Origin: Microbotryum violaceum
Lineage: Eukaryota
Length of the DNA: 64,000 bases
Direction of reading: 5' to 3'
Assembly (NCBI GenBank): GCA_001244265.2
Contig: CDLV01000004.1
Span: forward strand, 496,001 to 560,000
Shown: positions 53,590 to 55,943 of the stretch, one piece after another
How the letters are laid out: the number at the start of each line of letters is the position of its first letter
Position numbering within the stretch: the first letter of the stretch is position 1
Notes under the pieces: model-generated
Told to the model about the DNA's origin: nothing
The model's database searches: none
Seen by the model: only the letters and a program-made list of their open reading frames with translations
Translations under genes and position numbers: made by a program

Positions 53590-55943
53590 CCTATCTGTGA
53601 TGAAGGAAGCGGAAGCACCCGTGTCAACTAGGGCTCGCAAGGCAGGTCCATCCTCTGTTGTGAGCTTCACAGAAAGGGAAATGGGTTCGCACATCTTGTC
53701 ATCCGTGCCGTTGTCGTATTCGTCATTGCACAGGCAGTGTAGCTCTTCACCCTTGTCGTCAATTTCGTCTACGGCGTCGGATAGGGGTGCAACTTGTTCT
53801 GGGGATACGGGACCTTGTCGCCAACCCGCTGGGACTTTACAAGCCGAAGTCGCTGAGGTAGTGCACGTGTCCTTGAAGTGGCCAGCATTGATCTTGCAAC
53901 ATTTGAAGCAGCCCTGATTGCTTCTGAGGAAAGCACGCTCATGGTCGGTCACTGGCGGCGCTCTGGTTTTGGAAGACAACGGCGGCAGCGTAGATGGCGA
54001 GGCGGTAGTGCGCAGCCTAGGTGTGGAGCGGACGGTTCTCGCTGAGGCTTGAGCTCTTGCCTTCATGGAGGCACGGGTGGCACTGATGACTTGCAAGAGT
54101 CGCCTAGCTTCTGCGTCAAACGTCTGGTAATCGAAGACTGCGGAGCTGGTGGTCGAGTCGGCTTTGACTATGGAGGCGTCGAGTTCGTCGGGCGACAATC
54201 CCGTCCCCTTGATCACCTCCGAGAGTTGGAGTCACTGGGAGAGCTCCTCATCCATGTGGAGCAGGAGCATGCGGACCAGTTGGGTGTCGCTGACAAGACT
54301 GACGCCCAGTTCCAGTTGCAGATTGCAAGCGGCCGTTGAAAATTCTCGGTAATCACCTGTCTGTCGCAAGTTGTCAAGGTGTCGATAGTGTTGCCACATG
54401 TAATTGGACAGCAACGCGCGAAGTTTCAAATCGCGTTGGAATACACCGTACTTCTTGTTGACATGTGACGCGGCATCACTGGAATACCACACCTTCAGCT
54501 CTGGGTCGAGGAGCAGCTGGCCGATTATATCGATCTTGTCAACATCTGTCTTGATCTTCTCTTTTTTGAAGTATCGATCGTTGCGAGACCAGAAGAGTCA
54601 AAGTCCCGATAAGGTGCGGTCGGTGCGGCAAAGGTAAGACGGGGCGTGCAATTTCCAGCAAAGGGGTGCGTCCTTGTGCGGTTCGCTCATCCTGCGTGCG
54701 GCAGGACGGCGGCGGTCGTTGTCTGAGTCGGAGTCGGTCACGGTAACGGCGGAGGCGGGGTCGGAGGCTCCCGAGTGGATGCTCTCCGAGTCGCTTAACG
54801 GCAGAGGTATGAGCAGTGGATTGGGTATGGCAAAGGCTCTAGCCAACCTGGCAGCGGCGCGAGTGACGGCGGGAATGCTGACGTGTCTTGATTGTTGTCA
54901 AAAAAAAATTGGAAGCACCGCGTGCAGCGGTGCTCCAGAACGATAGACAGGATCAAACAATAGTAATTCACTAGAACCTCAGGTCAGTGAGCTAGCATAC
55001 TACACATATGAGAAAAGGGGCACCCACCTAGAACCTTGGGTCAGTGAGCTGGCGAAAGCCAAGGGAGGTTCTAGGTGCACGCAAGCTATTCAACTAAGCC
55101 AAAAGTTCTATCGCCTTCCATTGTACCTCGGGCAAAGGCCTCAGGCCTTGCAGTTTGGTGGACGGCGGTCACCAAGCGGTAGCGGTGAGGCTGGTCGCAT
55201 TGAGGTCGAGCTTCGGGGTGGCCACCAACAGGTGGGCAATGGAGGTGAGCGCCTCGCGGACTTTCAGGTTGATTGGGACGCTAGCGTTGGGCCGCGTTTT
55301 TGTGCCGATCTTGTTGTACAGCAGAGTAATGTGTGGGCGGGCTTGAGGGGCGATGTTCAGAGCCCAGCTGAGCCAGCCTGTCATTTGGCGCCATTGCCGC
55401 AGAGGTGGGCACCTACCGGGGAAGTCCAGGAAAGCCTGGATGGCCGTAGCAAGGTCGTTGACTGCTTTTGGTGTGAGGGAGATCGAGAAGTTGTTGAGGT
55501 CGCAGTATATACCCGTGATTGTCACGCATCGGCCAAAGGGGGCTTTGTTAGGTGTGAGCTTGAACGGGAGCCCGAGCGAGCTCCAGAGAGTTGCCATCCG
55601 CGCTTGCTGCGAGGGAATGATGTGGGTCTCACCGAAAGGAACTAGACGGCCCTCGATATCGACCCCAAAGGTGTCCTCCATGTAGGTAAGGGGGTGCTCA
55701 ATGCCGTAGGAGTGATGAGCTATCCAAACGACGAGTGACATGAAGCATGTCCAGAGGAAGGGCATCGTGCGAGGACCTAGTTAGCCGAGAGCAAGCTGGT
55801 GGCAAAGCGGTGCCACCGGAGCAGACAAATGAAGTCAACGATAGAATCGTAAACCGTCAGGCAAGCCGCACAAGATATGCCGCCATTGAGGCCAGACCTT
55901 GTGTGATCGGTGACGACTTGCATTCTGTGGTTGGCTGACTCAA

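Follow-up and report, generated by a model that had tools for sequence, protein, structure and literature searches.

We found by comparison of sequences that a run of thymines placed directly behind the left long terminal repeat (LTR) is a conserved, clade-wide trait of fungal chromoviruses and is not restricted to one genus. The leader behind the run can pair with part of the LTR of its own element, and the two features together suggest that the element's own polyadenylated 3' end may anneal to the U-run and leader and prime minus-strand DNA, a tentative reading to which we give not quite an even chance. A known but unexplained layout is thus extended to fungi and shown to be widespread; newly added here are the LTR complement of the leader and its link to the poly(A) signal.

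The window, by which we mean the whole 64-kb stretch of Microbotryum violaceum DNA that was analysed, contains in its right half a nest of LTR retrotransposons. Within this nest, the minus-strand element Gy2 is split by a plus-strand copia element (46263-53053), into which a 1.8-kb gag-only element with 151-bp LTRs (48702-50543, minus strand) is in turn inserted. The orientation and LTR borders of Gy2 are fixed by its second LTR (95% identical, 243 bp each), a purine tract, a 5-bp target duplication and a minus-strand pol ORF, whose product is 96% identical to Microbotryum pol proteins. A chromodomain (PF00385) is present in full-length relatives at 82-95% identity, and the Gy2 copy itself is broken. 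The features of Gy2 that define its ends are as follows.

54910..55152, minus strand: 5' LTR, 243 bp, TG...CA, borders from the 5-bp target duplication
42838..43080, minus strand: 3' LTR, CA end followed at once by the target duplication, T-run absent
43081..43103, minus strand: polypurine tract (PPT), directly upstream of the 3' LTR in the minus-strand reading
42833-42837 and 55153-55157: target duplication, 5 bp, GTTTG on the plus strand
43947..45887, minus strand: RT-RNaseH-integrase zinc-finger ORF (Pfam RVT_1, RT_RNaseH, Integrase_H2C2)
54910..54937, minus strand: U5-terminal hairpin, 11 bp with one bulged U, reaching the last LTR base
54909, minus strand: spacer, 1 nt, A (a C at 43 of 46 sites overall)
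54900..54908, minus strand: T9 tract, the proposed minus-strand primer-binding site (PBS), missing at the 3' LTR end
54899-54896, minus strand: GACA after T9, read directly

An earlier note on this DNA, made from the letters alone, had described a U5 stem-loop followed by A, T9 and GACA, and each part was recovered at its place (54937-54910, 54909, 54908-54900 and 54899-54896). The arms of the hairpin (54937-54927 and 54921-54910) enclose a loop at 54926-54922. An 81-nt RNA of Gy2 folds at -25.1 kcal/mol (z = -3.5; 0 of 200 shuffles as good), and the last 36 nt of its LTR fold at -19.1 kcal/mol (z = -4.3). The T9 tract carries no insertion or deletion among the variants listed (12 of 34) in a contig comparison. 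The same layout had been claimed for two other sites in the window, and both runs do lie behind LTR ends, one in the gag-only element and one in a further element, termed element A.

50393..50543, minus strand: 5' LTR of the gag-only element, 151 bp, terminal hairpin, nested in the copia element
50383..50392, minus strand: T10 tract of the gag-only element, abutting the LTR with zero spacer, then GACA
48702..48851, minus strand: 3' LTR of the gag-only element, preceded by a purine tract in the minus-strand reading
41315..41345, minus strand: 5' LTR end of element A, hairpin and terminal CA
41300..41313, minus strand: T14 tract of element A, C spacer at 41314
38277-40870, minus strand: ORFs of element A, protease, then RT-RNaseH-integrase, downstream of T14

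The three borders share an LTR hairpin, a terminal CA, 0-1 nt and then T9, T10 or T14. The gag-only element has its own PPT and a near-perfect target duplication, and its T10 lacks one base in a single contig of run X2 and in another of run X16. In the 81-nt fold test its border region beats shuffles (z = -2.9), and that of element A is no better than shuffles (z = -0.5). The window elements show the TG...CA LTR ends, the 5-bp duplication and the domain order protease, RT, RNase H, integrase of Ty3/gypsy elements, and their protein relatives include Microbotryum pol proteins (up to 96% identity) and proteins of Rhodotorula, Sporobolomyces and Rhodosporidiobolus (53-58%) and of Puccinia (48%). 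Sixteen homopolymer runs of A or T of at least 7 nt occur in the window, three of which lie 0-1 nt from the terminal CA of an LTR.

Conventional primer sites were sought at these borders. A TGG tRNA complement within 0-5 nt of the 5' LTR end is absent in all three elements, and a Tf1/sushi-type PBS (at least 10-11 nt, 0-5 nt after the 5' LTR, matching the start of R) is absent as well, the T-run occupying that stretch. No tRNA gene was found in the 64-kb window, no Rfam family in 38000-62000, and no A-run in the LTRs of Gy2 and the gag-only element. Two other origins of the T-runs were considered and rejected: LINE-like poly(A) tails occur only at 12044 and 15488, and PPTs of plus-strand elements do not fit, since PPT, duplication and domain order fix the minus orientation. 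Tf1-type self-priming was said in the earlier note to occur in the window too, and it does, in a plus-strand chromovirus (55943-61531) whose PBS starts 2 nt after the LTR and whose LTR match lies 37 nt after the TATA box.

56319..56329, plus strand: Tf1-type self-priming PBS, 11 nt, complementary to 56163-56173 in the element's own LTR

In canonical LTR replication, the primer is extended first by the base that becomes the right end of the LTR, and the location of the T-run relative to the LTR end therefore constrains where the primer sits. In every case with a checkable target duplication, that is, in Gy2 and in 10 metagenome loci, the T-run lies outside the LTR. It follows that the 3' end of a canonical primer would pair with the T-run, and that such a primer would end in A's.

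The metagenome loci come from anonymous contigs, which were scanned with a pol alignment and yielded 80 chromovirus loci at 35-59% pol identity. The layout, consisting of the LTR end TTCCA, a C and T6-9, is present in 43 of the 80 loci; 41 of these have at least T7 behind an LTR-like end and two have T6. As first located, the run in the positives with at least T7 lies 1,149-2,927 nt upstream of the RT match. Ten loci have LTR pairs with matching 5-bp duplications, which place the LTR ends at CA and leave the T-run outside. When the three sites of the window are added, the 46 run lengths are T6 (two), T7 (three), T8 (20), T9 (19), T10 (one) and T14 (one). Both the place and the length of the tract are thus kept, with T8 or T9 at 39 of 46 sites, and the suspicion in the earlier note that relatives might share the layout was borne out. 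The bases around the run are likewise constrained: CAC precedes it at 43 of 46 sites, and the second base after it is A at 44 of 46. The spacer is C at 43 of 46 sites, element A among them; Gy2 has an A instead, and the gag-only element has none.

Of the 37 loci that lack the layout, 31 extend less than 2,000 nt upstream of the RT match. Six remain: L070 and L078 belong to a different clade, L074 is too incomplete for the tree, and L041, L048 and L062 fall within the clade, have long upstream sequence and carry no motif. The 5' part of L048 is non-homologous to that of its nearest motif-bearing relative, L034, and for L041 and L062 matches were found in the RT region alone. In an RT-RNaseH tree (FastTree, midpoint-rooted, no support values; 80 rows, three dropped for low coverage), the motif-bearing loci fill one large clade, and a sister clade of eight lacks the motif. 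The Tf1-type chromovirus of the window falls in this motif-free sister clade. No TGG and no complement of at least 10 nt that could serve as an alternative PBS was found at the LTR border in the surveyed loci. Viral contigs yielded no relative, and none of the 80 metagenome loci lies on a poly(A)-ended contig.

The U5 hairpin, which had been described as part of the layout, is common in the clade and is not a fixed part of it. In the last 36 nt of the LTR of 30 family representatives, it is found at p<=0.05 in 18, at p 0.05-0.10 in five, and not at all in seven, so that it is frequent and not essential. A conserved AGUGU offers a second pairing, since its GUG pairs with the border CAC in many families; this predicted pairing offers a reason for the conserved C.

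The second constant feature is a complementarity between the leader and the LTR. According to the earlier note there was no obvious LTR-complementary PBS; this holds for the LTR border itself, and a complement is present directly after the T-run. In Gy2 it comprises the following parts.

54884..54899, minus strand: leader blocks, GACA, internal loop and second block, complementary to 54946-54960
54946..54960, minus strand: LTR segment complementary to the leader, the proposed 3' end of R, paired with 54899-54884 in the minimum-free-energy fold
54949-54946, minus strand: proximal block TGTC, with CC just before it

In each of the 30 family representatives, where families were clustered by shared 8-mers and some block positions were picked by heuristic, the 4-7 nt with which the leader begins behind the T-run have a perfect complement in the element's own LTR. 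Typically, a small asymmetric internal loop, placed at the final C of a conserved GTC(C), separates a proximal from a distal helix. The proximal block varies between related families, and the leader varies along with it. Because a MAFFT alignment of 26 sites put the T8 and T9 leaders out of register, the complementarity was assessed by cross-family permutation. The mean match is 4.93 nt within families versus 3.67 nt in 870 cross-family pairs (p = 2e-11), and the duplex between the last 24 nt of the LTR segment and the first 24 nt of leader has a mean of -12.7 versus -6.2 kcal/mol (p = 1e-12), with the block misplaced in L059 and L065, which lowers the own-family scores there. The complementarity is therefore family-specific.

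From its position within the LTR, the complementary segment looks like the 3' end of R, the place at which polyadenylation would be expected. An AATAAA-like hexamer (at most one mismatch) precedes the end of the segment by 12-19 nt in 16 of 30 families, with 0 of 11 in upstream and 0 of 24 in downstream control windows; the matches picked for W_A and L018 adjoin the hairpin and are probably non-canonical. The distance from the segment to the LTR end spans 7-78 nt as picked in the hexamer test, and 13-78 nt for well-placed blocks. Since the hexamer distance is narrow and the LTR-end distance wide, the segment appears tied to the poly(A) signal rather than the LTR border. At 34 of 46 sites the conserved, GU-rich AGUGU comes next.

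The source of a primer that ends in A's was then considered. None of 11 complete elements encodes an A-run of at least 8, and four of the 11 lack even A6, so that a non-templated poly(A) tail would be left as the obvious source. The mean duplex energy with the U-run and leader is -2.4 kcal/mol for the A's alone, -12.1 for the proximal block plus A's, and -21.8 for the 24-nt R end plus A's. Poly(A) alone thus binds weakly, with about -2 to -3 kcal/mol for A9:U9. That a poly(A) tail, own or cellular, primes on oligo(U) had been proposed in the earlier note; the sequence logic and the conservation speak for the proposal, in which the primer itself stays putative, and between the two sources the leader-R complement favours the element's own 3' end, the weak A9:U9 pairing disfavouring a cellular tail. 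Moreover, because the sister clade uses an 11-nt Tf1-type self-primer, the use of an element's own RNA as primer would already be present in the lineage.

We therefore outline the following model for own-3'-end priming, each step of which is proposed. The U8-9 tract of the genomic RNA, one base past the end of U5, would be the minus-strand PBS. The primer would be an RNA with oligo(A) at its 3' end and would most likely be supplied by the element's own polyadenylated transcript, through the 3' end of the same or a co-packaged molecule. An unbroken duplex with the U-run and the leader would be formed by the last ~20 nt of R (distal block, GUC(C) and proximal block of 4-7 nt) together with 8-9 A's at the start of the tail. 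The tail would then probably be trimmed, or the duplex cut, to give a 3'-OH on the first U, from which reverse transcriptase would make strong-stop DNA of the spacer, the hairpin-bearing U5 and R. The U5 hairpin and the GUG/CAC base pairing may be the counterpart of the retroviral U5-IR stem. The trimming or cleavage step is needed because poly(A) tails greatly exceed 9 nt in length; in the account of Tf1 in PMC7175516, RNase H cuts within an RNA duplex, which we take as an analogy for this step only. What the sequences show is the anatomy, its conservation, the place of the T-run outside the LTR and the family-specific complementarity; where polyadenylation occurs, which RNA primes and how the tail is trimmed is our inference. 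Against the model, a hexamer within one mismatch of AATAAA is seen in only 16 of the 30 families. Simple tail annealing, moreover, predicts neither a length held to T8-9 nor a C spacer that hardly varies. Retrocopies that join the R end to A5 were not present in the DNA searched.

If the model holds, polyadenylation should occur at the end of a defined block, the primer should join the R end to oligo(A), and changes in the 3' LTR and in the leader should compensate each other. In its widest form, it would hold that a major clade of fungal chromoviruses, and perhaps Skipper too, primes with the R end and 8-9 A's of its own genomic RNA, the tail being trimmed or cut, and that the first strand transfer could take place within one molecule, the strong-stop DNA remaining joined to it beside the 3' R. 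We regard this generalisation as somewhat unlikely. If it were true, own-3'-end priming would take its place as a third general mode among LTR retroelements.

Three other explanations were weighed. The first, which we judge unlikely, is that any cellular poly(A) or oligo(A) tail primes, and that the LTR-leader pairing is only a U5-leader stem in cis, which with the hairpin exposes the U-run in a loop, much as the PBS of retroviruses is exposed. Because the 5' and 3' copies of the segment are identical, sequence cannot separate a 3'-end primer from such a stem, and a single fold of the 5' region does form exactly this structure; the hairpin and the GUG/CAC pairing are common, and a cellular tail dispenses with any assumption about the poly(A) site. 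However, A8-9:U8-9 at about -2.4 kcal/mol would confer no element specificity, and a cis stem gives no account of the position of the segment, which ends 12-19 nt behind an AATAAA-like hexamer and at widely varying distances from the LTR end.

Even less probable, in our view, is a Tf1-like 5' self-priming, in which the 5' end of the transcript folds onto the leader behind the T-run and is cut, and the T-run is copied and later removed by integrase back to CA. The 11-nt 5' self-primer of the sister clade would provide a model, the two-block complementarity with its internal loop resembles a recognised cleavage structure, and plant relatives of the Tcn1 clade are predicted to self-prime in the portion of PMC6317226 that treats them. 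Yet 9-10 nt would have to go from every cDNA end, the run being in no 3' LTR, and a homopolymer of fixed length would have no reason. The segment also lies 58-124 nt after TATA-like motifs (with the block misplaced in L065) versus 37 nt in the Tf1-type element, and the AATAAA-like hexamer just upstream would leave an R of few nucleotides.

Finally, the U-run might not be a primer site at all and might serve packaging, dimerisation, 5'-3' circularisation for translation or protein binding, with priming by an unrecognised route; the link between run and priming is drawn from position, and U-runs also lie upstream of the PPT in several relatives, but we consider this very improbable given the fixed place of the run 1 nt from the LTR end, which is the PBS position, and the lack of any other candidate PBS (no TGG, no border complement of at least 10 nt).

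Priming by an element's own 3' end also has to be set against known systems. The pairing of a poly(A) tail with a T-rich strand starts cDNA synthesis in target-primed reverse transcription of LINEs. There, T-rich DNA is the primer and poly(A) RNA the template, whereas here the roles would be reversed, in an element with LTRs and an integrase. Similar to retroviral U5-IR and U5-leader stems, a hairpin lies at the end of U5 and a U5-leader pairing brackets the PBS; in retroviruses, in contrast, the bracketed PBS binds a tRNA (in part from the structures covered in PMC3601003). With Tf1/Tj1 self-priming, as far as PMC7175516 and PMC4600332 describe it, the layout would share the lack of a tRNA, the use of own RNA as primer, a U5 stem-loop by the PBS and a related chromovirus lineage. 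Unlike the fungal elements studied here, Tf1 pairs the first 11 nt of its transcript with a PBS 0-2 nt past the LTR, where these elements have the T's, with the complement behind them.

How LTR elements prime that have neither a tRNA nor a Tf1-type PBS has been a standing question at least since a 2001 proposal for Cryptococcus Tcn2-5 and the 2016 Skipper report, judging from the passages on these elements. For Tcn2-5, possibly novel priming was suggested (Goodwin and Poulter 2001, as cited in the part of Maxwell 2020, PMC7175516, that concerns them). SM-Tcn1 of Selaginella is described as having neither a tRNA nor a self-priming PBS and a conserved thymine-rich sequence between the 5' LTR and gag, with the mechanism called unclear (Novikova et al. 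2010, PMC2864245, in the section on this element). The likeness to SM-Tcn1 and Tcn2-5 is drawn from these descriptions, which give no sequence detail. Poly(A) priming of LTR elements was described in none of the papers that our literature search returned; Goodwin and Poulter 2001 may already describe the T-run, and the supplements of PMC6317226, on PBS types of Tcn1-clade plant elements, may bear on precedent. Annotation tools for LTR elements that demand a tRNA PBS will misjudge elements of this kind.

The closest precedent that we found described is Skipper. In the sections of Spaller et al. 2016 (PMC5006619) that deal with these chromoviruses of dictyostelids and Protostelium, a degenerate polypyrimidine stretch and a characteristic C replace the PBS, no complementary LTR region was found, and no other organisms with such a layout were known. 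The elements studied here resemble Skipper, known to us by description only, in being Ty3/gypsy elements without TGG, with chromodomain-bearing relatives, a pyrimidine tract right after the left LTR and, at 43 of 46 sites, a C on its LTR side; they differ in belonging to fungi and not to Amoebozoa, in the pure T8-9 in place of a degenerate tract, and in the family-specific LTR complement. The layout is distinct from both tRNA and Tf1-type priming, beside which the earlier note had proposed a third mode, and the Skipper tract, as these sections present it, is a precedent for it. The mechanism was left open there; a novel self-priming was suspected, and a poly(A) stretch in the element's own sequence was doubted because of the C. 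Our data offer an answer to this objection: the C is a spacer base with a pairing partner in U5, and two Microbotryum elements have another base or none in its place.

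Comparison with contigs assembled from sequencing runs (X1, X2, X15 and X16) revealed how the window copy of Gy2, the minus-strand Ty3/gypsy element that is split by a copia insertion, differs from other members of its family. A 384-bp stretch at 53206-53589 is missing from these other copies, with position 53205 joined to 53590 in X1, X2 and X15, and 53203 joined to 53590 in X16. A portion of this stretch matches, in opposite orientation, the LTR of element A, another minus-strand Ty3/gypsy element of the window; 53206-53589 is probably a secondary insertion in Gy2. A homopolymer run lies nearby:

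53123-53140, T18 run

Across 50300-55300, the commonest differences from the contigs of the same four runs are places with A or T in the window and G or C in the contigs. From window to contig, A>G was found at 62-84 places and T>C at 67-79, against 30-36 for C>T and 38-40 for G>A. The predominance of A>G and T>C indicates an excess of C-to-T changes in the window copies. RIP-like mutation is known in Microbotryum, and the excess fits the expectation from such a process.

A chromovirus of the same window carries a different priming site:

55943-61531, plus strand, intact-looking chromovirus with 100% identical LTRs
56319-56329, plus strand, Tf1-type self-priming site of 11 nt, pairing with 56163-56173

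One genome therefore holds two priming types. At the PBS position of the plus-strand copia element (46601-46614), TGG is absent from the border; this position is a candidate for the anticodon-stem type of initiator-tRNA priming (Ty5-like), which it resembles.

Among the related chromovirus loci on metagenome contigs, positions 1-60 of L003 open with an entire Illumina index adapter that runs straight into the LTR's terminal A, followed by the C spacer and T9. Because the adapter abuts this A, the library fragment ended exactly at the LTR/PBS border. This could be chance, or the end could represent a reverse-transcription intermediate whose minus strand stopped at the primer site's 5' edge. Upstream of the polypurine tract, at a distance of a few bases, six loci (L066, L058, L040, L028, L015 and L073) have a second run of T7-9. 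AC or C often stands before this run, which resembles the U-rich box upstream of retroviral polypurine tracts.

Further T-runs of the window belong to minus-strand elements that are LINE-like, with RVT_1 as their sole domain:

12044-12056, plus-strand reading, T13, poly(A) tail of a LINE-like element
15488-15497, plus-strand reading, T10, poly(A) tail of a second LINE-like element

Both elements sit within a 3.45-kb tandem duplication of 76-92% identity. What looks like a host gene adjoins the transposon nest:

23690-24259, minus strand, ORF carrying an SF3b10 splicing factor domain
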